Below, one piece after another: positions 27,201 to 64,000 of a stretch of 64,000 nt of DNA. The notes beneath the pieces were generated by a model, which was not told the DNA's origin, searched no databases, and saw only the letters and a list, made by a program, of their open reading frames with translations. The number at the start of each line of letters is the position of its first letter. The stretch's first letter is position 1. Made by a program: the position numbers and the translations under genes. Origin of the DNA: Amoebophrya sp. A120 (Eukaryota; Protista; Dinoflagellata); NCBI GenBank assembly GCA_905178155.1, contig CAJINV010000011.1, forward strand, positions 1,949,939 to 2,013,938, in the 5' to 3' direction.

Positions 27201-30200
27201 CTCGAGCTGGGTCTGGAATGATGCGCATTTCAAATCGAAGAAAAATGTGTTTTATGCAGAAAGAACAAAAGTTGTTTATTTTTGGTCATGGTGAGAGCGG
27301 ATTTTATTTTCTCATGCAGAGTATAAACATTGCGAAGCTCCCGAAGAACCTGTGATGCTGGTCCTCCCTGCATGCCAGACACATCTCTTGGTCGTCATGC
27401 AAAGGCAAAAGAACCTGCATTTGCAAACATCTGCGTTCATCATCATCCAGACCCAGCCATATTGGCAGTGCATATGGTTGTGGTGGAAGTGGTCGTCGTG
27501 GTTGTGGTAATGTCCGTTTCCTGAGGCAGGATTTTCGTGGCATTGTTCGCCTGCTTGAACTCAGTGTACTCCGTCCACATGTTATCCTGAGAAAAAAGTG
27601 TTACAGTCACGCACCCTGATGCAAGACAAGCAAGACAGACTACAACCTCTGTCATGCAGGAAATGCTTGCCACCGTCATTTCATCAATGTTTCCCCTTAT
27701 AGTCTATGCATATACAAGTTTTCTTTGCCATGCAAAGCAAATTTGTCATGGTGAAATTCCAAGAAAAAGAAATGGAAATGCGTAACTGTAACACTTTTTT
27801 CCTAAGATACATGTTCTCGAGCTCTATCTGCGACAGCGCACTGTGCCCGTCGACGGATTCTGGCACGAAGTTGCCGTTGCTGTCCTTCACGTGCCCGTTG
27901 TTGTAGGTAACGTGCCAGTATGGAATGCAAATATGGCTGGGTCGTCTGGAAACCTGTGATGCTAAAAAGCGTGGACGATGGAAACACAAACATAACACTT
28001 CCGAATGCAGCCCAGCATGACCAGTTTCCAGAACGCTTCTCCATAGGCAGTACGCATGAGAAACTGCGTTTTTGCACGACACAAGAGGCTGCGCTTTATT
28101 TTGTTGGTATATGCAATACAGATTCTCCAGGATTGGATTGTATTTGTAACGCTAGCATTACAAGTTTCAACTTTCCAGACCCAGATGACATGTTTGCAAT
28201 GCATAGCCAGTCCGGAACGACGCCCTCCCACGCCTGGTCCTTGGCAACCGTCTCCCACTCGTATTTGGTCAAAGCTTCCAGGTTACAGTCCTTGTCGGAG
28301 TTGGTATCGAATGCAAAAATGTCTGGGTCTGGAAGATTGCGAGATTTGTCATGCTTATCTGGCATGACAAAAAGGTTTGCGATGCGTGTCCAAGAAGAGA
28401 CCCTTCTGCCTGTCATGCAAAAACGCAGTTTGTCATGGGAAAAACGCAACACAACAAAGCGCAGATATTTCTCATGCTTGCCTGTGCATTACAGAGCATT
28501 CACTAGTCCCAACGCAGCATTACAAGTTTCCACACCCAGACATTTTTGCAGTTGATAGTTGGGGCCGGCCAGCCAAATGTTGCTCGTCTCCATGTACAGC
28601 CAGGCGGGGTATCAACTGCAAAAATGTCTGGGTCTGGAAGAGTCGCGGCTTGTCATGCACATTTTGCATGAGCCGTGAGGTCTGTGATGCTAGTCCTAGC
28701 ATCACAGATTTTTTGAGAGCTTCTTGATGCTAATTACGCATGAGAAATGCCCTTTCCTTCGGCGTGCCAAGAACTGACTCCTCTTACGCTACTGCTCAGG
28801 CAAGAACATAGATATTTCTAGAATCCTCGGACAGCATTACAAGTTCCACTCTTGTTCCAGACCCAGACATATTTGCAATCCATACGGGGTCCACGAAGTC
28901 CGTTTGCGCGGCGTTGATGCGGTGCCGCACGTTCATCAGGTGAAACACCAGATCTGCGTCGTCGCACTCTATCAAAAGCAAAAGCACCCCCTCCCGATAT
29001 CAAAACGAAGTTAGTGCTGCTGGATTTGCGTGACAAACCGCCTCTCTAATGGATGCGCCGCATACCTCGGCGCCTGCCTTCTTGCAACACATAAACTGAT
29101 TTTCGACCACAAATCTCGTGCATCACAAATTTTCCTTTTCGGTATGGGGAGGGTGGCGGGGGATTTTTCCTCACAGTACACTCCGTGCCCTGGCACCCCT
29201 TGTCCACGAAGTACTGGCTCCAGTCGCTAGCTTTGATGTAGTACCTGGGATCGCTCGCGGGTCCAGTCGTCGTAAATTCGGTGAGGCGGAGGTAGTTTTT
29301 GCCAATAAGGTCGAAAAGCTGGTCGAAATCCGGTTTGTCGGGCACTTTTGTCGGCAGAAAGACGGTCCGCTGGGGATCGCCGGGCTCGCAATCATCCGTC
29401 GCTCCTTTTCTCTCTTCTTCTTCTTCTTGTTTATTTCGCGACGTCTTCAACCTCTTCGTCGCGTGCGCTTTCTCAAAGCGAGAGGTCGACTCTGACATTC
29501 CCTTGGTCAGCTGGTTGATTTCAAAGCGATAGTTTTCTTCATCACCTCCGCCGTTCTTTACGCCGGGAAGAGTAGTTGTGCTGGAGGGGGGTCGTGCTCC
29601 TGGGGCGTCCTCTTCAAGATGAACCTCTTCTTGCGCCGGCGTTTTTCCCCCTCGTCCCTGCTCTACTTGGTCTTCAAGAGTTGTGTACTCGTCGTCACCT
29701 CCTTCAGAAGATGCGGAGAAATCCGATCCCTGCTGGTCCTGCGCGCTGAGTTCTTGCTCGAAGAGGTCCTCGTCGGAATAGGAGGCCACCGCCGCTTCGA
29801 AGTCCTTGTCTTGATCGTACTGCGCCTGCTCCGCGTCACTGGTCATTTTCCGCTGGAATTCCTTGCGTTGGAGGTTCTGAAACCCATTCGAAAGGCTGTC
29901 GTCCAAGCTCGCAAGTGTCGCACTTTTCGTACTTTTCGTCCGCTGCGACGTCCTCTGGCCCATTTTTGCTGCTTGCCGTCCTTGCTGGCCGGTCTGTAGT
30001 TCCTGCTGCTGTTCGACCCGCATCATCGAAGCGGGGGCTGCTGCGGCAATTCCCCCGCTGGCGAGGGTTTTTGGTAATACTTCGACAGGCGAAGACCCCT
30101 GCTGCTTCATCCCCAGCTCCAACCCGACGGGCGCTTTCTTTACCCCCTTTGTCGTGGTCTCCCCGGGGGCGCTGGCTGGAGGGTGTGGTGCAGCAGGCAG

Positions 30201-33200
30201 CGACCGGTAATCTGAGGTGGTTACCTCTGTTCCTGCAGTCTTTGTAGTTGTCCTCGTCGCGTCCTGCAGAGTACGAATGTGTTTCTGATCTTCGCCTTGC
30301 CAGTCGTCATCCTGGAGGGCGGCCTTGTCGATAGCTGTTCCTGTACTCCTTGTAATTTCGGAGCCTGGTGCAGCTGTTGGCTCTACTTCGTTTTTTCCTA
30401 GTTGCTCCTCCACCGTGTGTAGAAGCTGCTGACCACTTCCAGCGTGAAGAAGACCACCCTCCTCGTCTTCCTCTTCCTCTCCGCCACCGTCTACATAGTC
30501 ATAGTCGGTGTCTTCGTCTTGTTCAAGTGCTGGCGCGTCATTTTGTTGAAAAAACACGTCGTCGTCGTCGTCGTCGTCGTCGGCCTCCGTCCAAGAAGCG
30601 TAGTTTTCGCCCTATCAAATGCAAATATGTGGTCTGGGACGGGATGAAACTTGTGACGCTAAAGTGTGGAAGGATGATGGAAACACGACTTCCGCATGCC
30701 GCCAAGCATGACAACCTTCCGGAACGCTCTCACGCGCATGATCCCGCATGAGATGAAACTGCGGTTTTGTTTGTACAAAAGAGGCTGCGACTTTTGTTGC
30801 TCATGCAATACAGATGGAGATTTATTATGCGAGGCCACCAGCATCACAAGTTTGCACTTTGCAGACCCAGACATATTTGCACTGAATACGGGTCCCACGT
30901 CGTTATCAATCTTGTTTGCCGACCGCAGGAGCTCGGCGAACTTCTTCAGATTACTTAACTCCGCGGTACTCTTGCTTGTTCCTTTCAGTATCCAGGAAAA
31001 AATAAAGTGTGTAAGTGTAACTTTCTTTGGGGAACAGCATCACAAATTTGCTCTACATGACAGAGAAAACCTGTCATGCGTCACTTGTAAGGGAAAACAC
31101 ACATGAAAATAGGACTTCGTGGCTGTCTGGCATGACTGGTGCAACTCTGTTGCATGTTCTGCAACACAAATTTACACTTGCACAGTTTTTTTTGTTGCGA
31201 TATTCAGGACCCGTTCTCTGGTAGTTGTGGTGCTCCTCCTGCTCTCTGTTCCTTGAGAAGTACTCGTCAACGATCCTTCGAATTTTTCTTCCGATCCCGT
31301 TTTCATCATCGCCGACGGTGCTTCAATCTTGTTTGCCGACCGCAGGAGCTCGGCGAACTTCTATCAAATGTAAAAATGTCTGGGTCTGGAAGAGTCATGC
31401 TGTTTTTGCATGACAAAGAAGGTCTGGCATGGAAGCTCTAGCATTACAGGTTTCGAGAAGCTTCCGCAATGCCGAATCCGCATGACAAATCCCACACTTT
31501 GGTGACAGAAAGTGGGCAACTTTTGCTGCTTATGCATGAGAGATTTTTCTGTGTTCTGAAATGCGCATCACAAGTTTGTATTCTTCCAGACCCAGACATT
31601 TTTGCAGTTGATAACTTCTTCAGATTGCTTAACTCCGCGGTACTCTTGCTTGTTCCTTTCAGGACCCGTTCTCCAGTTGTAGTTGTGGTGCTCCTCCTGC
31701 TATCCTGAGAAAAAAGTATTACAGTTATACACTCTGATGGAAGAGAAGCAAGACAGACCACCTCTGTCGTGCAGAAAATACTTGCCAGCCTCATTTCCTT
31801 CGTGTTTTCGCTTATAGTCTGCGCATCACAGGTTTTCTTTGCCATGTCGAGCAACTTTGTGATGCAGAAACTCCAACAAATGTGTACCTGTAACACTTTT
31901 TTCCTGTAATACCTGCTCTCTGTTCCTTGAGAAGTACTCGTCAACGATATCCTGAGTAAAAACGTACCCACACCATAGTTGTCATGCAACTCTGCATGCT
32001 TAAAATGCTTCTCATGCGGAGCCCCATGAGAAGCATTTTCTAATGCGGTTTTGAAATTTGTCATGCTCCAATCAGCATGAGAAACTAGATCTGTAATGCT
32101 GCTAAACTAGCTCAAACAGCACTACACGAGGCGTCCAAATCTGTCATGCCAAACAACCAAAGCTGTGTGATTTGTCTAGCAGGTTTCCCATGTTGACTCT
32201 GGTGTGGGTACGTTTTTACTCAGGATAAACGATCCTTCGAAGTTTTCTTCCGATCCCGTTTTCATCATAGCCGACGGTGCTTCGAATTTTTCTTTATTAC
32301 AATGAAAAGTGCCCCCATCCCTGAACTTGGCAGCATTTGTATTGCTGCAAACCTTTCCAATAGAAAAATCCCCCGTCTTGCATATTATCAACATCACAAA
32401 TATGCCGTGCCGCATGGCGCAAGTTTGTGTTGCGCAAGAGCCCAGCTGCAGCCGGGCCTGTCATGTTGGAAGGCTAAGGGCTGGGCGTCCCCTCGTAAAT
32501 TAATTCGACAAACAGTAGCCTGAGGTCCTGAGGTCCTGAGGTGGGTGACGCGCCCGAGAGCACAGACACCGGCGGAATGGTGACGACCGAAAGGGTCAGG
32601 AGACTCACCTTTTTCGCGAGAAAGAAGACTGCTGAACCCGCGCGCGAAACTTCGGCGGGCCGACGCAAGTGCCGGTCTTGTAATGTAGAGCAATCAAAAA
32701 TCTAACGTCCCTATGTTCGCTGTTGTTAGACGAGGAGACAGTCCGAACCACGGAAAGGAACAACAGCTCCAGGGCGGGCCTGGGCGGAAAATGCATGACA
32801 AACACCGGAAGTCGAAACAGATCATGACAAGGAAAGGCCAGAATGATACTAAAGGTGGCACCAGGGTGGAAAAATAAAAGCTGGCCTTGTTCGTCTCCTT
32901 GGTCTCGTTCCCAAAGCCCAAGTAAATCTAAAGTAATTTTTTAAAAAATAATAAAGCTTTACTCTACGCGCGCTTAAGTTACTTTGTCTAGACCGGTCGA
33001 TCCACTTCTGCCTGTACCGTCTCTATTCCGTTTTCTCTACCACCCTAAGAAGTGGCGAGCTTATGCATAGCATGCTTAGGACATGCAGCCGGGCCTGTCA
33101 TGTAAAAGATACCTTACTCGCCTAGATTCTGCATCAGAAAGACTCGTAGTCCTTTCATGCAAGACAAAAAGTTTTCATTTGGAAACTTTGCATCAGAAAC

Positions 33201-36200
33201 TTTTGCAAATTTTCGGGTGGGGGCATTTTTCATTGCAATATTCTTCCGATCCCGTTTTCATCATCAGCGCCGACTGGCCAGTCTCCGCTAAGCCAACGGC
33301 CCCTGTTTGATGTCGTGTTCTCGGAGGTTTCGTGTTTTTTTCATGTAGGAGCAGTGCCTCGCTCTTGCTGGCTCTTTTCGTGCCGCTTTTCTTGTTCTCC
33401 ATTGAGGGTGGAGCAGGAGCCCTACCACGGTGGTGTCCACGCCCTTTGTGCCAGATGTCATCAACAACCTTAATATCATTGCGGCCTTTATTGCCTTCCT
33501 TGTTTCCCGTCGTAGCTGCCTTGTCGCGAGCAGATGATGATGCTGATGATAATGATGGTGAGTGGACGCGCTGGACCACTCCTACTACTTCGGGGTTATT
33601 TTCATTTTCGTCTACAACCTCCCGTAGTTGTCCATGATCTAGATCTTCGTGCTTTGGATCTTCATGCTTTACTTCCTTTATTTTCTGGTATTTGAGTCTG
33701 TGGTGGTGATGGCGGTGCAGGTTTTTCGCCGAAACGTCTCTGTGCTTTTTCGCGGCCTTTATCAAATGTAAAAATGTCTGGGTCTGGAAACTTGTACTGC
33801 TGCGTTGGGAATAGTGAATGCTCTGTAATGCACAGCCAAGCATGAGCAATATCTGCGCCTCTTTGTGTTGCGTTTTTCGCATGACAAACTGCGGTGTTGC
33901 ATGACAGGCAAAAGGGTCTCTTCTTGGACACGCATCACAAACCTTTTAGTCATGCCAGGCACGCATGACAAGTCTCGCAATCTTCCAGACCCAGACATTT
34001 TTGCATTTGATAGCCTTAACGATCAGATCATTCTCTTTTGCTCGGATCACCCCCTCGGCGGTCGCATCTACCCTCGTTATGCACGGTGCAAATATCATCT
34101 TCCACCCTGGATCATGTCTGGAAAAGCGCAAAAAACTGCTCATGCGTCCTTTCGTGGGTCCTCATACAACAAACATCTGTCTTGCATGATTGCCACAAGT
34201 TGCCCACTTGTGACCAACTTGGTACGGGGTTTTTATTTCTCATGCAGGATAGGAGTCAGTAGTAGTAGTAGTATTACCCAACAAAACGGGGTAAAACGAT
34301 AATTAGATGCGCTATCTATTTATTATCGTTAGTATTGCTGCCGGAACCGCTATCACTGCTTTCAGCTATTTCAGGCTCGTCTTTTTTCTTCTTCTTCCCC
34401 CGCGCAGGCTTATTCTTGCATTTGTCTTGGTGTTTCCGCATTCTCCCAACGTACCAGTTTAGTGCTCTGTTCTGGCTGTGCCACTCTTGTTCGTTGTGCT
34501 CGTATCGCAACTTATAGGTCCTACAGTGCCTGCACCTCAAGTACTGCTCTCCTGCTCTGTTCGTGAACATGTTAGCGGTAGGAACGCAAATCTTCCACGC
34601 CTTGCCTTGGCCTCCATATGTGTATCGGCCTGCTGCGCTACACCAGTAGTGATACTCCGATCTGCACACGCTAGGAGGATTCTGTGACCCTGGTGGCCTC
34701 TTGTCCAGCGAGGAGTTGTAGCCTACTTTTATGAAGTTCCCAGTCCTATGATCCTCCGCATGCCTCTCCATAGCGCCTGCCGACTCCACGAACGTGAGGC
34801 CGCACGGTATGCAGCGAGTTTTCTTGTGTGCGTGCTTTCCGCCACCTTTTTTCAGTTCGCGAATTTCTGGATTCCGCTGAAGTACTTCCATCTTGACTTT
34901 CTGGTCAAGCAGGGCATCCTGCTGGTGGTTTACGTCCAAAATTCGCTGTAGCATGGGGTCATCGGCAACAGGGTAGCAGGCGGGATGCTGTTGCTCCAGG
35001 TGCTCGAGAAGGGCCTCAGGCATGCCATCAGCAGGTTGCTGCTCAGCCAGTTCATCAAAATACTCTCTGCGGTCAACTTCAGACTGCGGGTCAAGTCCCA
35101 AAAAACACATGATGTTACGCGAACACCAAAAGCACTCCTCACCGCGAAAAACTTGCTCTGGGGCGCCGTCTGGAATCTTCATCTGTTGTATCATTTCCTC
35201 TACGGTGTCGCCATCCCATCCCAACTCTTCGCCGTCTTTACGAATTTTTTCCTTCATTTTCCCGAGCGACGACGAGGAAAAATACTTCGCTGCCAGCTCT
35301 TTCTCCACCTCAGCCCTTAGTAGTCGGTCTCCGTCCGCCCAGTCATCTGCTGTATGCCGGATGAAGGCCCATCGAGTCAGACAAAAATAAACCTTTTTGT
35401 TGACATTGTAGCACGACAGCTCGTTTCCTTGAGGTGGGGGTCTCCGCGTGTCCGCCTCCGCCATGGACTCCCACAGCAACTGAAGAGCCTCCGGACCCAA
35501 CTTGCACTCTTTTCGAAGAAACTCCAACGCGTCCCCAAAAAAGTCAGGAATTTTCTTGTCTCGCGCCTCCACCTCCTTCAGGTCCTGCGCAGACCTGTAG
35601 AAGTCACGCAGCCTAAGTCTCGGCACACCCAAGGCGTCTGCTTCCGCTGGTGGGCTGGCTCGCGGATAAAACTTGCCGATCAGGGCTGCTCGTACCAAGT
35701 CATTTTTTGGCTTCCGCATGGTGTGCGCAATTGTCTTCAGTTGCAGGTATCTGACTTGCGCACGGATGGGAGGAATCTTCATTCTGCGCCGCAGGCTGCG
35801 CGAACTGGCCTGGTTTTGGTCGTGTACCCATAACGGTATCCCCACGAACATCTTCATCATTTTTGTTTCAGCCGATTGTAACAAATTGAAGTGGTCCTCC
35901 CCGACAAAGCGAACCTGCAGGCCGTAGATCATGATGGAGCGGACCATAATGATCAATAGTTCCCCCTTGCGCTGCTGTGTCAATCCGGTTAGCCCCGACA
36001 CTGTCGACTTCAGTGCATGAAATGCCGACCAAGCCTTTGAAATTTTTATACGGATATCTGCGTCGTCATTTGTGTTCACGCCAAGGTTCCGGGTTTGAAT
36101 TTTTGTGATGTCATCCATGATTCTCTTGCTCAGGTTCTCACTCATCCCGCACTGGTTCAGGACTTTGCTCATCAGCTCTGTCAGTTCGTTGTTAAGTGGC

Positions 36201-39200
36201 TCAAGCTTGTTCTTGATCCGCTCGCTATTGTCCTCCACCTGCTTCAACACCTCAGCCGCCTGCCCCTGCGAAAATAGGGTGGTATCATCTGCGAAGAGAA
36301 GGCGGCCCAACAAGAATTTTATTAGCGTGTCGTCTTGGTTTTCGCCTAGCAGGACTCTCCTTCCCGCTTTCACCAGTTCGTGTATTTTTTCCTTCCGCTC
36401 CCAGTGCCACGCCTTGTCCATTGCGCTCAAACTCACACCCCAGGCTTCTTCAGGTAACTTCCGCCGCTCCAACTGAAAAATCCGCATTACAGCCGAATAG
36501 CAAACCAAGAACAAAAGGGGGGAGGATACGCAGCCTTCTTTTGTTCCGTTTTTCACGGTAAGCGGTATGCTATCTTCAAACATATGCACCGCGGATCGGT
36601 GTGAGCACCTTATCACCTGCCAACACCTTGAGTTGCCCAGCCCGAGTTCACGAAAAACGCCTTCCATCAGTCTCTCGTCGAGGCTTGGGAACGCTTTGCG
36701 TAAGTCAATGAGCGTCGCCACTAATCGGTAAAAGGTTGGAGACTTCGAAAAATGTCGGAAGTCTTCGCGCATCCGATTAAACACCAAAAGGCTGTCAAGC
36801 GTTCCTACTCCCGCTCGGAAGCCAAATGGTTCGGCGTTGAAGTATCCGACGGCCTCGAGCGCCTTGTAGAGGCGGTCCGAATAAATTTTCGTAACCAGTT
36901 TCATGAGTAACGGACTGATTACCAAAAATCTATAGTTATCGGCCGAGCTTCTTGCACCCTTGCCCTTGTACAACGGAATGTCGCGACACAAATGAAATTT
37001 TTCTCCCAGTTCCGAGAGAGGCCTCGTGTCCATCTCGGTGTTGATGATTCCCGCGATTACTTCCACCGAATCCTCACTGAAATGCTTCAGGATTTGTGGG
37101 GTGAGGCCGTGCACGTCTTTGGCCCTGCCTCCTTGCGCCATGTGACGAATCGCCTGCGCAAGCTCTTCTGCCTCCACCGGTGCGTCCAGCTCCGCTACTG
37201 TTTCCGGCAAAAGCTTCTTTACTACTTCTTTCAGCCTGCTGTCGATCGGAAGCGCTTGATCCTTGTGGAGAGGCGAATTCCCTACCATGTTGTACTGGGC
37301 GCGGGACTGGGCAGGGGTTACGTAGCACGCGCGGTCGCTCTTTCTGACCTTTTCTTCTCTAAAGAGCTGCCACATGTGCGCCTTTGCCTTGGCCGATTCC
37401 AGCAGCTGTTCAGACGTTGCGCGCGGAATTGTTTTTCTTGTTTTCCCGGTCAACATAGGCGCAATCTCAATTAAATAGTCCTGAAGCTGCTCCAAGTTAC
37501 TTATTTTCCCCGCACTGTGGCGTCGCTGCAGGCACTTGTTGATGTGGTCCCTTGTTTCGCCCGAAATCTCATTTAGAATGCCCTTCGTTAGCGCCTTCCT
37601 CGCAACTCCTTCCTCACGCAGCCTCTGGAAGGATTTCACGTCGCAGGCAATCTCGATGGCGGAATGGTCAAAAGATACTTGCGCATATGGGGCTGTGCCG
37701 TCACGGTTGCGGCCCTGTAGTGAAAATCTCCGATACGAGCGAACTTTTTCCGCCTGTTTCCCCAGTGTCAGCCAGTGGCCAATTTCCGTTTTCCCCCGGT
37801 AGGTGTGGTAGTTGTCCGCCTTGAACCACGACCCGGCCAGCACCAAACTCATGGACATCAGGTTTGCTGCGACCTGGTGCCCTCGCTGCGAGGTAACCTT
37901 GCTCCCAAATCCACCACTGATGCAGGAGCTGGCATACTCGTCGGAGCCTGCACCAATGTGAGCATTGAGATCGCCCCCCATCAAGAACATTTTCCACTTC
38001 TCTTTTTTCATTTTTTTGAAATCCTTTACCGTGTTCGAAAGGCTGCGGTCAAATGCTTGCACTGCATGGGGCTTCGATCCCGATGTGGGCGCGTAGTATG
38101 CAGCAAGGACGATCTCCGGCAAAGCAACTGCTACCACCCGCTCTCTGGCACGTACCAAATTTTCCGGAATGGGGCCCGATCCAAGTTGTTTTCTCAGTGT
38201 CAGCCCTGTTATGAGAATCCCGGCGCCGTTTATCCACAACAAGTCGAAGTCTTTTTTCCGAAGCCACCGGTACTTCTCGCTGCTGCTACCATCATTCGCG
38301 TGTCCGCTTACAACGAGATCTGCATCATCCTCCGGAATGTCATCGTCGATCATCTCCTCCACTCGCTCATCCTGGTGCAAATCAGCGTCACCATAGTCAG
38401 GCACATCACCCCCATGGGCATCATCAACCCCGTCACCAGCATCGTCGGCATCGAGCGCGCCTCGCTTGTTGAGTTCAGCAACAACAACTTCCCCCCGGGT
38501 TCTGGAAGAATGAAGAGACTTTTTACGGTACTCAAATTCACTTAACATGATTGCATCCCAACGCCGAATGCTTGCCACCCGCAGCACATGCCTAAGCCTG
38601 TCACTGTCTCTGCCTGCGCCACACATGTTCACGCATGAGAGCTTCACTCTTCCATGCCCTACAAGCGGTGGTGGGTCGTGCACACTTTCGGCGAGTTCAG
38701 GAAACGGCTCCCAGTCGACTTCGGATTTTTGCTGTTCTTCCCACTCCTTGAGAAGTCTTTTTCTGTCCTGTTCGATCTTCTTCATTGCGTTTTTGTGTCC
38801 TTGAATTTGCGGGTCGCCATTCCCTCCCTCATCACCACCAGCTGCTACTGTTACACGCGGAGGCCGCTTTGCAGAAGCTTCGTTCCCAGCTGCTTCCTTT
38901 AAAAGCCGCATACTGCTCTGCTCCTGTCCAACAACAGTGTCATCATCTTGCCCTGATGTTTCAGGTTCAGATGGCGTGGCTGTCGTACTTCCCAATGAGC
39001 GGTCATCCTGCTCGGAGCCGTCGTCTACACAAGCGCGGCGGTGATGCCAGCTGGTCTGGCCGCTACACGACGGAGCTACAGGATCAATATGGTGAACTCC
39101 CGAGCCAATCACCTCCCGATTACCATCGTGGAAGGCCTGCTGATAGTCTCCTAACCACTGCGGAACGCGACTACTCGATCCCGCCGGTGCCGGATGTTCA

Positions 39201-42200
39201 CGATCGTTTCCTTGCCGGTCGCCTGGTTCTGTCGAGCTCGTCCGCGAACAGCCTACCAGGCGCGAACTCAAAATGTGCCCCGGTTTGCCGTTGGGTAAAT
39301 CATCCGCTTTGCCGGTTTTCGGTCGTGTTTCTTCACTGTCCCGACCGCCCCAGGTCGGTGTAAGTAGAGCACTTTCGTGATTTTCTTCTGATTGGCAAGA
39401 CCAATACTTATCGCAAGTTGAAGTCGCTGAGCCAATGCGCGGGTGAGTCGAAACCGCTCCTCCAGGTGCAACAAGAGCTCTTGACGCGGAATTCGATATT
39501 GCTAGAACCGCCTCCGGCACTACTGAACTCTCACTGTCTCCCCATGGCGATGCGACATACTGTTCACCAGTTTGCACCGGTCGCGAGCTCGACCACTCCG
39601 TAGATCCACTTCCATTCGCAGTAACAGTGAAATCGGGCTGAGTATCTGGACAACAAACCCTTTCTGCGCAAACATCACAATGACTGGACTCAGGTCCTGT
39701 TTCACTTTCGTGGCGCATCCCAGAAAAACCGTCCACACCTTCCTCAGCTCCTGAGCCGAGTGGCAGCAATTCACTGTCGTCCTGATGCCGGTCCGACCGC
39801 TTCCTTTTCCCCCTTCTCCGATTAATCTCAGTAGCGGCTACCACGCTGGTGTCACGAACCTCTTTCTCGTTCTCAGGCGTAATTACTGCGTCGTACCCGC
39901 ACCGCGCATATCTAGGGAGAAGCCAGTAAAATGGTAAACTTGGGCCCCCGCTCGTCCCGGAGGTGTCGGCTATGTTTTCGACTGGGCAACGAAGGTCATG
40001 AACAAGCTGCCCAAAGGAGGTAGAAGACGTCTTCTTGCAGTTCGAATCTCGCATGTCGATGCTGCTTCTCCTTTTCTGGTTATGCTCTGGCGAGGATTCT
40101 GCACATGCGGTTTCTCGTCCTGTAGCGTGAAGATTACTAGACTTTCCACCAAATTCCCGCAATAATCGCGAACCCCGGCTTACAAACCAACAAAAAATTC
40201 TTCTGATGCTACTGGAAGCCATCGCTTTTCTGCACCATCGAGGCATGAATTTATGATGAAGCAGAGAGGGAGATGAGGACTTCGTCGAAGCCGCTGCATG
40301 CTGGCGCTTCGGCGTAATATGGAGATGAGGAAGCCAGTGCGTTCGCAAAAACAGTTCTTCCTCCGAGGTTACTATCTTCATCCGAGCGTCGTCAGTTTCC
40401 GTAGGCTGCGGTAATAGGTTGATGTATTTGGTGGCACAGGTCCAGCGGCCCGCACGGCGGCTCGTCCTAATTTTCCTCCACTTCCGATGCCAGTGCGATT
40501 CTCCTTTTGCTGTGTGAAATACTTTAGCCTTCCTGACGAAATCCCGCATGTTCAAAATCTCGATGTCGTGTAGAATCTTGCGTGCAGGAATTCGAAATTT
40601 TTTGGTGTCGCGGCGGGGCTGCACAGCTGCAGCGGATGCATCGACTGAGGAGAAACTCAGAGCCTCTTCTTCAACGTCGACCATTTTTCTAGTCCCTGCA
40701 AGCGCTCCACTTAGTGCCTGCACAAAAGCCATGAGCAGTGCCACTACTGCTGCTATCGCAATTTCAGCTCCACCACTCCCGGCCTTGACCGACGACTGAC
40801 GATTGCGATTAATGCGACAAGATGGCCCCTCAACGAGGTTGTTGCGCAACGACCGCACTGCACGACTCAACTTTCCCCAACGACAGAATTCATAACTATA
40901 GTTTGTAATCGGTGGACAATGCATATGCGTGGGGGAATCAAGCACAAAAACAAAATGAACATTGTTGCGGGATGCGCTCCGTCCTAGGTCAGGTCTGCAT
41001 TCAAGTCCACCACTGCTACTATGATCAGGAGCACTGCTGGGATGGTTACTAGTGCTATTGCTACTTTCTATGTGCGTGCCGCGTGTGACGTTGGACACAG
41101 CACTTTCATCAGCATGGTGCAAGTGGTAATGTGGATTCTTCTCAGAACTGTTGCTGCGAGCAAGTGCCCGCTTCAGCTCATCTTCTTTTTGTTTTTTCGC
41201 ATTGTGCTCAAACATTTTCGCACCAAATGCCGTTTTCATTTCTACCAAAAACGCAGAGGATTTTTTACCAATCATTGACCATGCTGTTTGTAGTTCAATT
41301 CTGCCTCCATCACCATCATCATACAACCCTTCGCCATCTTCCTCCTCTACTTTCTTGGTGCCGTCACTGCTTGCTTCGACAATTGCATTAGTTCTCATCT
41401 CCGGCTCGTTTCGTACCCGTTGTTCATGTACTGCATTATTTTCAATCCGATAGATCTCCGCGATAGGCCGGACTGCTGGCAAAGACGTGCTGACCACGAT
41501 TGTATTTCTTCGCGATATCGCATGTCCAACTTGTAGTAGTTTGCTTCTCGAGTAATAGTTTTGATTCTGCTGAATTAAGGTAGGCGACGTGCTGTTTACT
41601 GCTTTACAGATTTTTTTCTCCTTTGTTCCTGTGCATCCTGAATTACCACCATCGACTTCCGATTGAGTTACTGCTGCGAGCACGCTTCGCTCTCGGACGG
41701 CTTCGGCTCGGACGCGGCGGAGGGACCTGTTTTTGTTCTTGTTATTGTGCGAGAATTTCCCATGCAAATGTCCACGCGATACTGAAGAATCTGTCATGCA
41801 TGTTGGGGCAAAAAGAGTATTACCATTCGTGATTGCCATTTTGTCGGCTTTCCACTGCGGGGCGCCTTGCTTCGGATCATCGTCAACACAAACCCCACCT
41901 AGTGCACGCTTTAACTCCTCATCTTCATTCACATCACTGATGCGCGGCAGAGTAGCCCTCTGATTCTCCATCTCCTTCAACTCCTCCTCCGTGGCGAGCC
42001 CCTGCTTGAGTGCGAGGCGGTGCAAAATCAAGTTGCTGGGCTTCATCGCGTCGTTGGTCGACTGTTGTAAAAAAGAGCGATCTTCTTTGCGTTTTCCGTG
42101 GAAGTACTTGCAAGCGCTGAACAGCTGAGAGCTTTGCCGCTTTTCGGATTCAGCAACAGCATCACCAACCATCTTCTTCACCTTCTCCTCTGTCAACCCG

Positions 42201-45200
42201 GCATCATTGGTCATCTGGATCGGTTCTTTTTCTTCAGGCTCTTCAGGCATACGGCAGGACGGATGTTGCTTCACGTACCCAATGTCCCCGATGTTCATCA
42301 GAGTTTGAGCGCGAACGCGGAGCGTCGGCTTCCCCATGCGAGTGTGGCCCCACACAACTTGCCCAGCGTAGAAGGCCCGCGGTGTCAGTCCAACCGCATC
42401 ATCGATTTCACGCGTAAGGCAGGTAGCCACATCCGACGCCTTTTCGTAGCAGCTCAGGTGCGTAGAAAACAAGTCCTCCGGCGGGCCCACTGTGAAGCGC
42501 GTAATTCCCAGTCCTCCCTGCTCCGTGTCTTCTTTGGTAGCAACGCACTTCAGGATGTGACACGACGGCGGCAAGACCACAATGCCCTCGTCATTGAATC
42601 CAATGACATCTTCAACAACCCGACAGGCCGTGATGGGGATGGGGGTGTCGCGCACAACTAATCCCTTGCCCCGGCCTTTCGCTTCTTCCTTGTTCCAGTC
42701 GAATTTGAAGGCCTTGGCTTTTACCAGCGCGTTGACGATTTCGTATAGTTCCGGTAGATTTCCCTTGCCCCTGATCAAATAATCATCAAAAGTCTGCACC
42801 GCGTTGACAACAGCGATGTGCTGGACGTCTCCCATCTCGTAGGCATCACTGATCTTTTTCGCGCATTTTTTGTCGGCAAGCTCGTGGTACTCGTTGATCG
42901 ACTCCGGCGTGTCCAACCCGCCAAGCAACGCAAACCCCTTGTCCGCAGCGATTAAGAAGTTGTTGATGATTCCCACTGCGAACGCGATCCCAACATAGTC
43001 AAAGTGGATGGAAGTGACGGCCTTGATGATGTTCTGGATTGCTTCCCCATCAAAAACGTCAATCGCAATCTTGTCCATTTCCGCATCATGGATTTTGAAT
43101 TTTTCGAACATGTCCATCTGGTCGCTTAGGCGGTACGGATGCTTTTTGGTGTCGGCCAGCACTGCCCCCGAGCAGTGCTCCTCATCCTCCTTCTCAATTA
43201 CTTCTTTACTTGCTTCCACCGTTTCATCAAGCGTTTCAAATTCCATTTTTTCCTGCTTCTTCTTGTACGCCGCCACAGCAGCTGCTTCGCTCTCCTTGCA
43301 AAACGCGGATGTGATTTCTTGCAGCGAGTCACCGGAGGAAGAGGAAGAAGAACTCCCAGGCGCAGGGGTTACTTCCATAACCTTGTCATCGATGAGCCCG
43401 GCGAACATTTGGTGGAGATTGGCGCACACAACGTCATGACTGTGCTTCGCAGCAATGTGGTGGTTGAAAAGTTCTTGCACCTTCTGTTTTACTTCTGCTT
43501 TTTTCGTTTTTTCAACCTTGATGATCATGCTCTTGTTCTTGTCACCCGCGACCCACATGACGACAAAGTTACTGGCCTTGTCCGCCTTGTCCTTGTTGTC
43601 TTCAGGCGGGAAACGTCCGCTCCGCCTTGGTTTCTAAAAAGTCGCTAATTTTTCCGGCGGTTCGTTTTTTTCCGGTTCCCGATTCCGGGGAAGACGAGTG
43701 AACAAAGAAGACTCCCCAAAGAAGAAGAACAAAAGAGGCCCAAACGGAGAAGGACCAACCTGGTGGCCGGTAGAAACGAACCAAGACCCTTCCAGTGTTT
43801 GGAAGTGGATCTTCCCCACTCTGGTTGCCCAAAGACCCAAAATACACAATACCCCACCAGCGAAATCCCTCCTGACCACCGTCGCACCCCAGACATGTGG
43901 GAACACGATGAACATTTCCCCGGGTGCCCCGATCCACGTCTTCTAATTTGCCCTTCTAAAAGTTCCTTCTAATTTCATCTTCTAAAACCTTCTTCTAATT
44001 TCCCCCTTCTAAAGCCTTCTTCTAATTTCCCCTTCTAAAGCCTACTTCTAATTTCCCCTTCTAAAATGTCTTCTAATTTATCTTCTAAAAGTGCCTTCTA
44101 AAATGGCTTCTAAAATCCCTTCTAATTTGTTTTCTAATTCTTCTTCTAATTTTCTTCTAATTCTCGTCGAAATCCGGAGGAAATCCGGCTCCCCGGAGCA
44201 TGTCCGGGGAGCTTCTAATTTCCTTGTAGTGCAAAATCCCATTGGATTTTGCATTTTTGGATTTCGACGGCAGAATTAGAAGATGATTAGAAGTCCGGAC
44301 AGGACCATCAAAATGCAGGTTTAGCCGACATCTTGATGCTCTCCTTCCGAGTTCTGAAACCCCGTCACCCTCTCATCCTCCATTTCCCGAACAACATGAT
44401 GGTTGAAATTTTTCAACCATCACATTCTTCGGACCCAAAACATACACAAATATCCGAAAAAGGCGAAGAACATATCCCCATGAAAGACACAGACATCCAC
44501 AACACCACGGGGATAGGACACACCCACGCCAACCACACGGTGGAAAAACCACCCGGATATGTGTCGGCTCATCCTAGAACAAATCGACATCCCCTGCACA
44601 TCCGAGATAACCCAAAAACCTGCCGCAATTTTTAAATTTTAATTTTGCCGAACCACAAGACCATGGGTCGAGGCCCGCCGCGAATACAATCGGCGGCCGG
44701 CCCCAAGAGAAAGTGGCGGCGAACAAAATACACCCAAAATGGCGAGGGCGAGGCGTCGCCGGACGTAACGCTTGCAAACACCTACCGGGCGGGATTGCAG
44801 GCCAACGCCGGGGAATTTTTGAAGCGCCGGAAATTTTAGCGATTTTTTAACCAAGAAAACGGAGCGGGGTGCTCCCGCCTGATCTGTTGCCGGCGGGGCG
44901 GCCGGCTCACAGAGATCCCCACCCGCTTCGCCGCGTCGTCGTCCGACATACAGCGACAGGGNCCCGGATATGTGTCGGCTCATCCTAGAACAAATCGACA
45001 TCCCCTGCACATCCGAGATAACCCAAAAACCTGCCGCAATTTTTAAATTTTAATTTTGCCGAACCACAAGACCATGGGTCGAGGCCCGCCGCGAATACAA
45101 TCGGCGGCCGGCCCCAAGAGAAAGTGGCGGCGAACAAAATACACCCAAAATGGCGAGGGCGAGGCGTCGCCGGACGTAACGCTTGCAAACACCTACCGGG

Positions 45201-46574
45201 CGGGATTGCAGGCCAACGCCGGGGAATTTTTGAAGCGCCGGAAATTTTAGCGATTTTTTAACCAAGAAAACGGAGCGGGGTGCTCCCGCCTGATTGTCTC
45301 CATTTTTGTCCGGCTTCGCAACCTTCTTGTCAGCAGCAGTGCCGCCTTTGATTGTGGCCGAGGGCTTATTTTTCGGCGGCGCCATGTTGAGCGACTTCCG
45401 TACCTTCGGGAGGTCTCCTTCTTCAAATTCAGCGTCGAAGTCTATTCGTCGTTTGAGTGTGCGATCCTTAAACGCCGAGGTTGTGAGTACTGCTGTTGCG
45501 CTTGTTCTTTTCCGGTCCGCAGGGGATGTCCATAAATTTTCGTTCGTGTTTGACATGTGAATAAAAATCAATCCTATAGCGCGGCGGAATCAGAGATAGT
45601 CTGAGTGTGTTGTGGTGATTAGCAAGCGATACGGGTTCAGATTGTACACAAGTATTTTCGATTCAGATAGCAGTAGACAAAGAGCAAGGTAGTAGTAAAT
45701 CTTAAAACTTCAAGGCAGGTGAGAAATCGCTACGACACCAACACGGCTAATCTAGGGTGGAGGTTGTGATCGTGATCTCACGCAGATCTTGTTATTTCGT
45801 TGGATTTGCAAATTAGATTTTGTTGAAGCTATTCACTTTTTTTCGTTCTTTCGTGTTTTTGATTTTGTAGTGAGGTGCAGTATATCTATCGTTATTTCCG
45901 TGTTGGTGATAATGTCAATAAATCTTAAGCAAGTGATCTGGTAAAGGCTAACGTTTCTGATCTACGTTGTCGCTGTGGTGATATTAATACTCTAAGACCC
46001 CCCCCTCCCACCAGTAGGCGAGGAGAGAATTTCAAGGGTGCCTTGAGCCAAAAAGTCAAGATAAAGACCTGTTCACCGAATCTGTCATGCCTTCCAGACC
46101 TCCTAGTGTGCCTCCCTGCGCCATCGGCCACCTGCATGACACGTTTTATTGCACCCTTCCAGACTTCTCAGATACAGATGACAAATATTTGCATTTCACA
46201 CTCGTGCTGCCGCTGCCCTCTCTACTACTAGTACTCGCTTCTCCCTGTTCCGTCGAGAGGTGCGCTTTGGCAGCACTGATCGCCAGCTGCTCCTCGGCTT
46301 GTTTCGTCCCGGCGTGAACACTTGTGCTACTCCGACTTGAGAGTTTATCTTTACTCCGGCGGTTGGCAGAGGTTCTTCGTTTCCGTTTGCTATAATTTTG
46401 CGTGGAAGTAGATTTGTTTTTTTGCAAGGAGTGCGTGAGTGCCGCGGTTGTAGAGCTGCGTGGTCCCGCTATCATGTGGAGGGAAATCAGGCACGCGCCG
46501 ACGGACCGTAGGACCCGCAGCCGGTGGAGGGACTTCTTGCTGATATCTCGCGAGAAGAGTGCAGGTGGAGTCAT
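21202..46574 (-). CDS. Giant 29-exon gene (~1873 aa): low-complexity N-terminal half, Thr-rich mucin tracts, Cys-rich, WSC-like and PAN/apple-like modules, C-terminal degenerate MsrB-like domain
   Basis: Hand splicing of 26 TIR introns (element plus one TSD removed) and 2 GT-AG introns (26202-26462, 23531-23701) gives 5622 nt, divisible by 3, from ATG 46574 to TAA 21202. Motifs YVGCWYD...CHKYC...DYCSC (WSC-like), CGAMCWIYPSCVA...CVLY (PAN-like), HYGWMVF...HLGYNIPDD...RYYVNLVCVAG. Confidence 0.75.
21323..21575. mobile_element. Introner family B
   Basis: Family B TIR; TSD GTCGC. Confidence 0.9.
22027..22359. mobile_element. Introner family G
   Basis: Family G TIR; TSD GCCAG. Confidence 0.88.
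22429..22582. mobile_element. Introner family F
   Basis: Family F TIR; TSD GTTCC/GCTCC. Confidence 0.85.
22849..23101. mobile_element. Introner family B
   Basis: Family B TIR; TSD AGCAG/AGCAC. Confidence 0.88.
23220..23469. mobile_element. Introner family B
   Basis: Family B TIR; TSD CTGTC. Confidence 0.92.
23809..24060. mobile_element. Introner family B
   Basis: Family B TIR; TSD CCGTC/CCGCC. Confidence 0.88.
24500..24773. mobile_element. Introner family B
   Basis: Family B TIR; TSD ATCCG. Confidence 0.88.
24912..25217. mobile_element. Introner family B (degenerate)
   Basis: Degenerate TIR; TSD CGCAG/TACAG. Confidence 0.78.
25267..25475. mobile_element. Introner family E
   Basis: TIR TATC....GAAAAAACTGTTTCACTGTGA; TSD AACTC. 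Confidence 0.92.
25490..25760. mobile_element. Introner family I (single copy here)
   Basis: TIR T.T.AC.TGCTCA...TTACA.TCTCAAACGTT; TSD TCATG. Confidence 0.82.
25893..26148. mobile_element. Introner family B
   Basis: TATGCAT ends; TSD GCAGC. Confidence 0.88.
26544..26823. mobile_element. Introner family C (left end TGT)
   Basis: Family C TIR; TSD GAAAT/GAAAG. Confidence 0.88.
27183..27474. mobile_element. Introner family B
   Basis: Family B TIR; TSD TGGTG/TGGTT. Confidence 0.83.
27583..27809. mobile_element. Introner family H
   Basis: TIR TATC.T..GAAAAAAGTGTTACAGT; TSD CATGT. Confidence 0.9.
27919..28205. mobile_element. Introner family B
   Basis: Family B TIR; TSD GCCAG. Confidence 0.9.
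28305..28557. mobile_element. Introner family B
   Basis: Family B TIR; TSD GTTGG. Confidence 0.92.
28610..28884. mobile_element. Introner family B
   Basis: Family B TIR; TSD CGGGG. Confidence 0.92.
28970..29178. mobile_element. Introner family G
   Basis: Family G TIR (right end GTA); TSD CACTC. Confidence 0.85.
30613..30888. mobile_element. Introner family B, diverged TSD
   Basis: Family B TIR; flanks CGCCC/CGGGT; removing element +5 nt still restores frame. Confidence 0.8.
30989..31202. mobile_element. Introner family E/H-like
   Basis: TATC..AAAA..GTG.AAGTGTAA TIR; TSD TTCAG. Confidence 0.88.
31362..31613. mobile_element. Introner family B
   Basis: Family B TIR; TSD ACTTC. Confidence 0.92.
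31701..31911. mobile_element. Introner family H
   Basis: Family H TIR; TSD CCTGC. Confidence 0.9.
31948..32227. mobile_element. Introner family C
   Basis: TIR TATCCTGAGTAAAAACGTACCCACACCA; TSD AACGA. Confidence 0.93.
32295..33240. mobile_element. Introner (G-related) enlarged by a nested insertion
   Basis: TIR TATT.CAATGAAAA.TGCCCC; TSD TTCTT. Confidence 0.88.
32467..33083. mobile_element. Unknown ~617-bp insertion flanked by a 20-bp direct repeat, nested in introner 32295-33240
   Basis: TGCAGCCGGGCCTGTCATGT at 32447-32466 and 33084-33103. Confidence 0.55.
33760..34012. mobile_element. Introner family B
   Basis: Family B TIR; TSD GCCTT. Confidence 0.92.
34316..45556 (-). CDS. Retrotransposon polyprotein (3080-aa ORF 34316-43558, extended to ~3180 aa when element 43602-45293 plus one TSD is removed)
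   Basis: APE ~38650-37650 (LSCVNMCG, DAIMLSE, GGDLNAHIG, SFDHSAI); RT ~37130-36000 (IPLYKGKG..NYR, FGFRAG, IDLRKAFPSL, GTKEGCVSSPLLF, LLFADD); C-terminal Zn-finger-like motifs CIPC..H..H and CRHC..H..C. Confidence 0.9.
43602..45293. mobile_element. Non-autonomous TIR DNA element inserted in the retrotransposon ORF (true length probably ~1.28 kb)
   Basis: ~60-bp imperfect TIRs starting TCAGGCGGG; 6-bp TSD TTGTCT (43596-43601, 45294-45299); internal CTTCTAA array; contains an N and a 331-bp exact duplication. Confidence 0.85.
43940..44220 (+). repeat. CTTCTAA motif array (~12-13-bp period) inside the TIR element
   Basis: Roughly 20 copies of (C)TTCTAA with variable spacers; inverted TTAGAAG copies near 44275-44293. 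Confidence 0.9.
46042..46053 (-). other. Relict dinoflagellate spliced leader (3' 12 nt)
   Basis: Minus strand reads TTTTGGCTCAAG, identical to the 3' end of DinoSL (DCCGTAGCCATTTTGGCTCAAG), and abuts the retroelement TSD. Confidence 0.85.
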
Positions 46575-47212
46575 CGTTGCCAAGTCAAGCTGACACTTCT
46601 ACACGTCAAATATGAATAAAACACACACACGAGCTGCACGATCAAAACCAAAACCAAAGCCACGAAAACACGAAGAGAAAATAAATACAACCTGACGTGC
46701 GCTGGCGCTACGTGTAAGAATCAGAGTTAAGCACTTCCTCTCCTATCTGTGTATGCGGGACACGACCCGCTTCTGCCCTCAGACCTCAAAACCTCGCCCC
46801 TTTTTTTTATTTTCATCGCGCTTCCTCATTTGACTGCTTTTTATTCAATCTTCACTCGGCGTTCGCAAGTACAAGCAAGGACAACACAAGGACAAGCAGC
46901 TTGGGCGTGCACTATTTGATAGGTAACTGCAGCAGCCCCTTCGCCATGCACTTCTTCATCAGGGTCGCATTGAGCGCCGCCTTCCTGGCATTTCATTGCC
47001 CGCTCAACAAAGGTTTCACATTTTATCGTGCTTCTACATCGATCTGCAAGAAGAACTTGCGTTCTGAGTTCGCGTTGATTCCCGAGCTGTAGTGCTGTCA
47101 AGAATTTATCTAACATCGTGTCAAGAATTAATCTCTAACACACTTCATCGCTGGCTTCCAAAAGCTTAGTAGAGAGGAGGGTCAATCTCGATGTAAAAAT
47201 ATTTCGTCCTCA

Positions 47213-50200
47213 TCAGTCCGTCGTCACTGCCGGTGGCTTTCCGGCCACGCAAATCAAGTTGATGCAATATCGGTCTTTCCCCTCCTGGTCCTGAAATTTG
47301 TGCCCCAGCTTATGGTCTCCTAAACGGCCGTTACATTCTCAAGAACTGTTTTTCTGAACAAGTATCTGTGAGTGGGAGCCGAGAAAGTTTTTTCATGGAA
47401 AGCGAAAGGCACGATCAAGAGAGTTCTTCGCATTACAAATTCTCAAACCTGCAAATCTCCTTAGCTTAGTCAACTGTAATATGTTGAGGACGGGCAAGGT
47501 GACGCAAAAGTTGATTACAGCATAACAGTTTATAGAATGCAACACCTGCGGAAGCTATCGTAAGAAAAAAGTGTTTCACTGTATCAATCTGTAAGGATCT
47601 TTTAAGTGTTGCATATACAAGGTCGCTACACATGACAAAAAAAAAATTTGCCATGCGTACTTCCTAAGAGAAAACACGTTGAAAAACCCACGATTGTCTT
47701 GCATGTGTAGCGAGACAAATCAATCATGCGTCTGTGTATGTGTTGCATTCTATGTCGATGACAAGTTTACGTACAGCAAAACAGTTTTTTCTTGCGATAG
47801 ACTGAAGATAAAAATGCGTTCCAGCCTTGGACAACACCTCGTGGTGGTAGTTCGAAGCCGGGTATCAAATGCAAATATGTGTGGGTCTGGAAACTTGTGT
47901 TGCTGAGACTTGCATTGCAGACTTGGTCCTTGTACGGCATACTAGCATAACAAGTTAAACTCGGCTTATTGCCGCGGATTCGTTCCTCGTGTTTAGCATT
48001 ACAAGCTGGCTTCCAGCACGAGGACAAAAGAAACGGCCACTCGTATTCATGCATCACAGATCTTGTTGTCCTTGAAGTCTTGCATTGCAAATCCAGACCC
48101 AGACAGATTAATTTGCAGTTAGTACCGGGAGCTCGGTAATATTTTCCGTGATCACTTCCCCCGCCCGGAAGGACGGCCAGCCGTGCTGTATTCTGAGAAA
48201 AAACGTCCACCCCGGAGTTGTCCTTGTCACGTATGCAAATCTGCATGCCAAAAGCGTTTATCATGCGGAGCCCCATGAGACGCATTTTCTAGTCGTGATT
48301 TGGAGTTTTTTATGCCAGCATCAGCATGGTGCGCTAGAACTGCGATGCTACTAAACTAGGTATAAACAGGATAACACTATGAGGGCAAAAAACTTGTCAT
48401 GCGAAACAACCAAAGCTGGTTGATTTGTCTTGCAGATTTCCCATGTTGACTCTGGTGTGATGTGGGCCCCGTTTGTGGTCAGGATATGCTGCGAGCTTTC
48501 CTCCTTCCACTCCTCGAAGCTGCGCGGCGCGGCCGCAGCATTGCTCGCCGCGGTGCCGTATGCACTGCAAAAGTACCGCACTCGTACCAGTAATTGCAGT
48601 TATGCATTACAAATCTAGGTTGTTAAGATCAATCCGCATTACAGAGTCAATTTATTTGTAATGCTGAGCTAATTTGTATTGCAATTCATACTGATACTAG
48701 TAGGATACTTCTGCAGTTCATATGCTGGTCTCTTCCTCGGCCGCGTCTTGTTCTACCTCCGCAGTAGTTCCATCATGCGTGGTCGTTCCCTCGGCGTCCA
48801 CGGTCAAATTCTTGGCCGGGAAGCGAAACACTATGGATTTGTCAGGCTAGAAATCGGCAAAGGTGAAATGTTGACTTGTCATGCATAAAATGCGACACAG
48901 AGACTGATTCTGTTGCACAGGACGCAATGGAGGCAGATTGTAAGTAATGCTGGCAACGGTCAAGAGTTGGGCTGCGGACTAGCATGACACAAGGGAGCTC
49001 CTTTGCTCTGAACAGCATGACAGAGTCGCTTCCGGCGCGGAAAAAATTTGTCTTCATGCGCCGATTATAGTCTTTGGGATTGGGTCCAACTCCAACTGTT
49101 ATCAATTTTGTGCATTACAAATTATTTCAACTTTGTCGATTTCGACCCCCGAACCCCCATAAACACCGGGGTCCCCGTATCCGCCGCGTCGTAAAACAGC
49201 ACCGGTAATCAACCGCAAATATGTCTGGGTCTGGAAGTAGAGTCCGAGTTTGTCATGCTAGGTCCGATCGACAGAGAAATCTGTATTGCATGATCCGCAA
49301 CACCAGTGCCAACTCTTCCGTGCCCAAAGGCAACACTTCTCATGCGGAATTGACATCGAAGAGCCTTCCAAAATAAACTTGTGATGCTGGAGCCCGCATT
49401 GCAAACCTTCTCGGTCATGCGAACCCTGCATGACAAGCCTTAAAGTGCTCCTGACCCAGACATATTTGCAGTGGATCATACCGGTTTCTCCGGCGTGGCG
49501 TGCTTCATTTCCTCGAACAGCTTCTCCCGGCCCGGGAGCGCGTGGTCGAAGTAGCCCGCGTTCTCCGCTCCGTCGTGGTTGTTGCACTATCGTAGGAAAA
49601 AATCCCCCCTCCCCATACTGAAAAGGCATCCTGCTAAAAATTTGTGATGCAGATTTGTTACGACAGATTCTCTCTCTCTTGCAAGGGGACAAATGCAAAG
49701 AGTCCGCCGCTTTATGCCAGCGATTTGTAATGCTGTTGCGCCTACATCGAAGGCCTCTGCTATTCTGAGCACCTACACAGAAACCGCCCTACGCAGCCTG
49801 AGGCTTTGCCTGCAGTGCCTCGTTGCAAGACAGAGCTGATTTGTGTACACAAATCCAGCAACAGAAATTTACGCTTCAATATGGGGAGGGGGGATTTTTC
49901 CTCTCAATATGCAGCAGATAAAGTTCGCGTTCGCCGTGTCGTATCAAAAGGGAAAAATCCCCCTCCCCATATCGAAATGGAAATCTGTGATGCAGGATTT
50001 GGGTACACAAATCGGATTTGTCTTGCAGTAAGGCATCGCAGCCAGATCCTCGGCCTAGGTAGGGGCCTATAGGTCTAGTTGCTTAGCATTGCAAACGGGC
50101 GTACCCTAGGCGCAACAGCATGCCAAATTGCTTCCATAATGGTGCAGAAGCCTCTGCGCTTGTCTCCTTGCAAGACAGACGTGATTTGCGACCTCATATC

Positions 50201-63753: not shown

Positions 63754-64000
63754 TATCAAATGCAAAAATGTCTGGGTCTGGAAGATTGCAACTTGTCATG
63801 CTAAAGCTGAAGCTCATGCAAAAATCTGTCTTGCATGATTACCAAAAGTCGTCCAGTTTTCACCAAGTCGGGAGGGAGTTTCTCATGCAGGATAGGTATG
63901 AGAGAGATCGCACAGAATCTGTCATGCTAGGTCCTGCATTCCAGACCTCATGAGTCATGGAAAAGCAGCATGACAAATCGCGCACTCTTCCAGACCCAGA
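63754..64000. mobile_element. Introner family B (right end just beyond the window)
   Basis: Left TIR TATCAAATGCAAAAATGTCTGGGTCTGGA; right TIR begins TTCCAGACCCAGA at the window end. Confidence 0.85.

Follow-up and report, generated by a model that had tools for sequence, protein, structure and literature searches.

The window analyzed here, i.e., the whole stretch of 64,000 nucleotides (nt) of Amoebophrya sp. A120 DNA, is crowded with elements of 160–340 nt that bear terminal inverted repeats (TIRs) and 5-nt direct repeats. A preliminary description of the locus had proposed that one such introner, in a gene on the minus strand, carries a LINE, which in turn carries a TIR element, and all six copies of the three nested target-site duplications were found: the outer repeat CTCGT (plus strand; ACGAG on the minus strand) at 46201 and 34073, the LINE duplication AGTCA (plus strand; TGACT on the minus strand) at 46054 and 34254, and the inner-element repeat TTGTCT (plus strand) at 45294 and 43596. 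Read along the minus strand, the locus begins with the coding part of host exon 1 (46201–46574), which has its ATG at 46574 and ends with the kept repeat copy ACGAG. Next comes a non-canonical intron with an assembled length of 12,128 nt (34073–46200), which comprises the left half of the introner (46059–46200; 142 nt, starting TGTGAAATGCAAATAT), the first copy of TGACT (46054–46058), the LINE (34259–46053; 10,097 nt once the inner element is subtracted), the second copy of its duplication (34254–34258), the right half of the introner (34078–34253; 176 nt, ending ATATTTGCACCGTGCATA), and the outer 5-nt repeat in its second copy (34073–34077). Within the LINE lies the inner TIR element (43602–45293; 1,692 nt as assembled, strand not assigned). 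The remaining host exons, exon 2 (34013–34072; 60 nt) and exons 3–29 (21202–33754), follow on the same strand.

The order of nesting is apparent from the fact that every element interrupts the one that encloses it and has its own flanking repeat. Moreover, as the TIR element breaks the frame that the LINE needs, we infer that it entered the LINE only after the latter had inserted. By arithmetic, the chances of such repeats at three fixed positions are 1/1024, 1/1024 and 1/4096, and these, together with two restored reading frames and a junction present in RNA, make a chance origin implausible. The outer introner core measures 323 nt, so that the suggested growth of about 37-fold comes to 37.5-fold, and excising 46200–34073 (12,128 nt) indeed puts EGSGST directly before RVDATAEG in frame.

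The LINE contains one frame of 3,180 amino acids (aa), which starts at an ATG at 45556 after a 497-nt 5′ UTR, and runs on across the inner element once that element and one repeat copy are removed. Its reverse transcriptase domain (PF00078, RVT_1) was found above the cut-off, with an E-value of 5.2e-8. The region upstream of it aligns to the N-terminal part of a database protein (P0002; pairwise E-value of 2e-7) that carries PF03372 and PF14529, and can be regarded as endonuclease-like, with no direct Pfam match and 0 matches in a PDB search. The element has a (TAC)n tail, and no terminal direct repeat of the kind expected for an LTR was found among the repeats listed. Four distant database matches, at most 27% identical, were obtained for the LINE protein, while a metagenome scan for relatives found nothing. 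Since the inner element interrupts its frame, the LINE is now a dead copy.

The first 12 nt of the LINE (46042–46053, minus strand), starting right after the repeat, are identical to the last 12 nt of the spliced leader DinoSL (12/12; leader sequence from PMC12014239). This is the only match of the 12-mer in the 64 kb, where 0.008 would be expected; as the full relic leader (DinoRL) measures 15 nt and no more than its final 12 nt are present, it is a truncated leader relic. In dinoflagellate retrogenes, a relic leader is taken as a sign of passage through a trans-spliced mRNA (PMC12014239, PMC3229502, PMC3942190), and the position of the match at the very first base, with so low an expectation, suggests that the RNA of the LINE was probably trans-spliced before reverse transcription. 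No earlier description of a LINE with a leader relic was found in the literature searched, which took in few subscription papers. The relic is in sense orientation with the host gene, 150 nt from the start of the intron; its last two letters are AG, and it represents a possible acceptor inside the intron.

Regarding the inner element, it has imperfect TIRs of ~62 nt, flanked by the 6-nt repeat at 45294–45299 and 43596–43601, and a 13-nt tandem array at 43939–44162. It holds no long frame, and two overlapping frames gave no Pfam match; its TIRs and target-site duplication are those of a non-autonomous TIR DNA transposon. Part of it (44552–45294) is uncertain in the assembly, where a single N at 44962 adjoins an exact duplication of 332 nt (45294–44963 equals 44883–44552). 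The duplicated 332 nt are the start of the element, and the 79-nt spacer beside the N matches nothing else well within the window. Most simply, the 411 nt would be an unmerged contig overlap of the kind seen in gap-closed Illumina scaffolds, in which case the intron would be ~11.7 kb long; alternatively, the duplication may be real or some sequence may be hidden, and the intron may measure about 11.7 kb, 12.1 kb or even more. The A120 assembly was produced with gap-closed Illumina scaffolding tools, and chimeras were checked with Nanopore reads (PMC7789003).

The host gene was expected to comprise 28 clean exons downstream of the long intron, which was borne out: the 29-exon model (one upstream plus 28) encodes 1,873 aa with no stop. 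Its 28 introns are of the introner type in 26 cases (the 5-nt direct repeat being perfect in 19) and of the GT-AG type in two; exons 3–29 alone span 24 further introner-type introns and the two GT-AG introns. A Pfam search with the host protein returned 0 families, and a weak caspase match was discarded, as its frame begins inside an introner and its score lies below the cut-off. Searching with the protein of exon 9 gave one match, CAD7963379.1 from Amoebophrya sp. A120 (hereafter P0001; 100% identical), and our model equals P0001 letter for letter once the 276-nt intron at 25760 is retained and one junction is shifted within its repeat. The public gene model thus already carries the 12.1-kb join, unremarked. 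The deposited annotation was built from transcript alignments (PMC7789003), and because the same RNA may underlie it, P0001 was not counted as independent of the RNA contigs described below.

Several further observations were made in and around the host gene. The 276-nt introner at 25485–25760 (minus strand) is retained in P0001, where it is read as coding for 92 aa; from their lengths, RNA contigs of 4,471 and 4,504 nt would end in the 3′ UTR, near 21030–20995, if this introner is spliced, and on that account the annotation may be wrong at this point. Beside it, the model includes a 9-nt exon (25476–25484, minus strand) between two introners. A tandem coding duplication in the host exons (30889–33270, minus strand) contains ~70 aa twice, and the copies carry introners at different sites, so that a site occupied in one copy is seen empty in the other (e.g., 31290–31220). 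A further gene (55000–57700, minus strand) consists of repeated short exons with only GT-AG introns, in contrast to its introner-rich neighbors, and is followed by an open frame of 679 codons (54770–52734) with no Pfam match. An Rfam search of 32000–47500 returned 0 matches.

To evaluate the join in RNA, four sequencing runs were compared: a DNA-like run (X1, sample S1), two RNA-type runs from one sample (X3 and X4, sample S2), and a set of raw RNA reads (X9). The RNA status of X3 and X4 is a tool's guess, which is supported by their skipping of introns, and the RNA and DNA-like runs come from different samples and studies. In X3 (record 13), letters 1–223 correspond to 46423–46201 and letters 284–797 to 33754–33241, with 0 differences; in X4 (record 20), letters 1–103 end at 46201 and letters 164–677 resume at 33754, again with 0 differences. 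The resuming segments are predicted by the 29-exon model at letters 284/797 (X3) and 164/677 (X4), identical to the offsets observed, and the 60-letter gap from exon 1 to exon 3 in both contigs is the length of exon 2, which was identified by that length and by P0001. Each of the two records is a single unbroken contig across the junction. As they join exon 1 to exons 2–3 at the predicted offsets, the 12,128-nt stretch, which includes one repeat copy, is absent from the RNA. Exons 3–29 are represented by X3 record 9 and X4 record 16, the former reaching 30546 at letter 109, which fits exon 8 (47 letters) plus exon 9 (61 letters). In addition, the exon 1 region (46201–46602) shows 0 differences in the RNA-type contigs, and exon 1 encodes the N-terminus of P0001. 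Hence, neither a missing join nor a gene start below 34077 was observed, and the cautious suggestion that the intron may still be spliced is backed by exon-joining contigs in both runs and by the identical join in the deposited protein.

Sequencing depth was also considered. In RNA, it is zero in 13/18 (X3) and 15/18 (X4) of the bins wholly inside the LINE; the residual low depth in a few LINE bins comes from pieces too short to list and was not used. In X1, depth over the LINE is 49–89 versus 44 on the single-copy exon contig, pointing to a near single-copy element. One X1 contig (45265–47200, depth 44.4) contains exon 1, the introner half, the start of the LINE and the start of the inner element, and a second one (depth 47) spans 37799–44161; a DNA piece over the 3′ junction of the LINE was not present among the matches listed. 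The X9 reads, labeled as the same species, leave the gene uncovered: of their 96 partial matches, almost all are to an introner. Along the gene, depth amounts to 3.7–4.6, then 6.3–6.4, then 17.6–37.2, and does not jump at the long intron; as the depth of contigs measures abundance poorly, this gradient was not taken as evidence on splicing efficiency.

Intron 3 of the same gene (32290–33240, minus strand, 951 nt) is a second nested introner, with an insertion of 637 nt flanked by 20-nt direct repeats (33103 and 32466). It appears to be spliced as well, as both contigs leave the genome at 33241; sequences that are related but non-identical are present in the RNA-type runs.

We then focused on the ends of the long intron. 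Its cut can slide over six registers, and the claimed absence of GT-AG ends holds in all of them (0/6). Register 4 gives GT..GA (donor GA|GTGTGA) and register 5 gives TG..AG; GT and AG never come together, and no register reads as a canonical U2 intron (GT or GC...AG). No GT/GC-AG pair of equal length lies near the intron ends, and a hidden GT-AG pair was rejected, as the nearest pairs shift the length by 1–3 nt. The hallmarks of Amoebophrya introners are found instead, namely a direct repeat of 3–5 nt at the boundaries (ACGAG at both ends) and an inverted repeat of 8–20 nt between the ends, with an exact 9-nt core (TGCAAATAT). Removal from RNA without GT-AG was also observed, the allele of the RNA sample being one that may differ from the assembly. 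Within the 64-kb window, the element belongs to a repeated family: the 323-nt core matches 8659–8849, 63819–63995 and 14205–14395 with 63–68% identity over ~200 nt (E ≤ 7e-9), besides four weaker matches.

The two ends of the long intron can form a gapped duplex of −37.1 kcal/mol over 50 nt (z of −6.0 versus shuffles), which is within the range of the short introners, while the two GT-AG introns give z values of −1.3 and −0.3. Moreover, a terminal motif, TAT-n5-G-n-AAA, is found at both ends of the introners of the host gene, being conserved at positions 1–3, 9 and 11–13 in 23–26 of 26. The 5′ end of the long intron has TGT instead of TAT and a motif score of 17.4, near the median; its 3′ end has TAT with a 2-nt insertion, and scores 5.7, or 20.8 with the bulge removed (median, 18.1). 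On the ungapped motif, seven inner sites score at least as high as the true 3′ end, and they are unused in the contigs. When ends of 50 and 80 nt were considered, none of 4,950 windows paired better with the 5′ end than the true 3′ end did. When the ends were shortened to 30 nt, several sites within the LINE (down to −21.7) outperformed the true partner (−16.8), and at 50 nt the 3′ end paired better with an inner site at 43930 (−39.5) than with its true 5′ end. Across the host gene, an introner's own end is its best pairing partner in only 9/26 cases, and lowest-energy pairing was rejected as the whole rule.

Based on these results, we consider it probable that a 323-nt introner took in the LINE, then the TIR element, and is removed as one intron via its two ends. 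The RNA would derive from the LINE-bearing allele, and the signal would be the terminal motif, confirmed by the pairing of 50–80 nt between the ends. During ~12 kb of transcription, the 5′ end would wait and bypass the weaker decoys, to close on its own partner, i.e., the first true introner end downstream as defined by motif and pairing. The cut would probably fall 3–4 letters into the direct repeat, where register 4 would provide a GT donor for the long intron. The LINE itself probably arose from a trans-spliced mRNA, which would account for its leader relic, and the introner may act as a shelter, where even large insertions would be of little cost to the host gene. Length-independent recognition from end to end, as originally proposed, is the best reading, but not by pairing energy alone: as this picks the right partner in only nine of the 26 introners, order or proximity must also count.

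A different view, which we find unlikely, is that a tolerant spliceosome removes the intron in one step by means of short end motifs and exon definition, the pairing being a transposon relic. The near-invariance of the terminal motif and the poor record of pairing alone would fit such a view, as would the GT..GA ends of register 4. Likewise, the imperfect repeats of the introns at 30888 and 25217 (minus strand), read together with P0001, place the cut at letters 3–4 of the repeat, a limit that assumes one register for all introners and comes from two informative introns only. However, only 8/26 upstream repeats end in G, so that GT donors would be the exception; the motif score of the true 3′ end lies far below the median, with seven better or equal decoys left unused in the contigs; and U1 was not detected in A120 (PMC7789003).

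One may also ask whether the RNA came from cells with a short, LINE-free allele, the 12-kb allele being unspliced or unexpressed. The RNA and DNA runs do stem from different samples and studies, the perfect repeat and open frame of the LINE give it a young appearance, and among the matches listed no RNA contig of X3 or X4 lies over the introner-LINE junction. Nevertheless, we judge this improbable, since it needs two successive insertions to arise and become fixed between the samples, whereas the X3 exon pieces show 0 differences over 223, 514, 1,368 and 196 nt, and the LINE allele is present at full single-copy depth in X1. A metagenome scan for an alternative allele of the exon-1 junction found nothing.

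There is similarly little probability in our view that the intron is removed in pieces, by recursive cuts or with spliced-leader trans-splicing coming first and the introner halves being joined later. Trans-splicing at the AG of the relic would sever the pre-mRNA, and the halves would then join, possibly in trans, by pairing. The sense relic near the start of the intron offers an acceptor for such a route, dinoflagellate retrogenes re-use relic leaders as acceptors (PMC3229502), although through an internal AG that is absent here, and the long intron holds 10 GTRAG and 9 pyrimidine-AG sites. Yet, the inner elements are without introner ends, and among the X3 and X4 matches listed there is no LINE-length RNA contig, intron-internal joint or loose end, contigs being prone to drop rare forms. 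One contig runs unbranched across the junction, though contigs are unable to reveal intermediates. Finally, a misjoin at the N of halves from different loci, which the N itself, the exact 332-nt duplication, the foreign 79-nt spacer and the lack of a DNA contig across the N among the matches listed might suggest, was rejected as very improbable, because the N is straddled by all three pairs of repeats, by the frame of the LINE and by the junction in RNA, and alters the length and not the join, in an assembly that was checked for chimeras.

In short introners, end pairing, local folding and scanning are indistinguishable. The present locus is a natural stuffer experiment, in which the ends are kept, the length is multiplied by 37, seven motif decoys lie in between and the junction is exact, and argues that introner ends suffice for recognition; it points to a genome-wide comparison of introners with nested insertions, relating junction use to length and pairing strength. 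The leader relic, in turn, would be direct sequence evidence of a retrotransposon RNA trans-spliced in the fashion of an mRNA, and a leader-tagged LINE is relevant to where dinoflagellate retrogenes obtained their reverse transcriptase. More tentatively, it is conceivable that in A120, where U1 seems to be missing, length-independent splicing closes any RNA between paired introner ends, with introners serving as intragenic landing pads for autonomous elements and the leader-capped LINE riding within, transcribed along with the host gene and released by trans-splicing at its own relic.

Overall, the original observation was right, and splicing is supported by RNA: this is an ordinary Amoebophrya introner, stretched 37-fold and probably still working. 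Growth by nested insertion is commonplace among GT-AG introns that receive transposons, and fungal stwintrons, which are removed stepwise by design, rely on GT-AG signals too; the long introner, unlike both, is without GT-AG. What is already known includes the join in the public model, multi-kb end-paired introns in euglenids and ordinary growth by insertion. A paper on a nested, still-spliced introner was not found in the literature searched, and the available text of two reviews (PMC11282704, PMC11453091) holds nothing on nested or very long introners.

The LINE resembles APE/RT non-LTR elements in its reverse transcriptase domain, short duplication and 3′ microsatellite tail, and possibly in its upstream endonuclease-like region, and differs from them in its single 3,180-aa frame, the leader relic at its start and its low identity to the four database matches. 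Similarly, it begins with the 3′ part of DinoSL as relic-leader retrogenes do (PMC12014239, PMC3229502), but the tagged copy is here the retrotransposon itself, with 12 nt rather than their 15-nt relic.

As for the introner, non-canonical introns and introner elements are known from A120 (Farhat et al. 2021, PMC7789003); according to the same paper, roughly two thirds of Amoebophrya introns are without GT-AG, and non-canonical introns of A120 average 240 nt. Our intron shares with A120 introners the non-canonical ends, the 3–5-nt junction repeat, the terminal inverted repeats and the repeated family, along with a TAT...AAA-type motif from which both of its ends deviate, but is ~50 times that average, through nesting. 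It falls outside the validated set of Farhat et al., which covers introns of 40–1000 nt with mapping capped at 10 kb; in Table 1 of the paper, the longest intron of A120, type not given, has 35,152 nt (PMC7789003). Gozashti et al. (2025) attributed some A120 introners to retrotransposons, and the word "nested" is absent from the main text (PMC12130899). The nonconventional introns of euglenids, of probable MITE origin, likewise have no GT-AG, a sliding site and paired ends (PMC11282704, PMC11170887, PMC12501133). Their CAG/CTG code (PMC12501133) is absent from the long introner in 6/6 registers, as is N3CDG from its 5′ end, and they belong to another lineage and reach up to 4.7–5.9 kb (PMC11170887), about half the length of the present intron, in which, moreover, the history of growth can be read directly.
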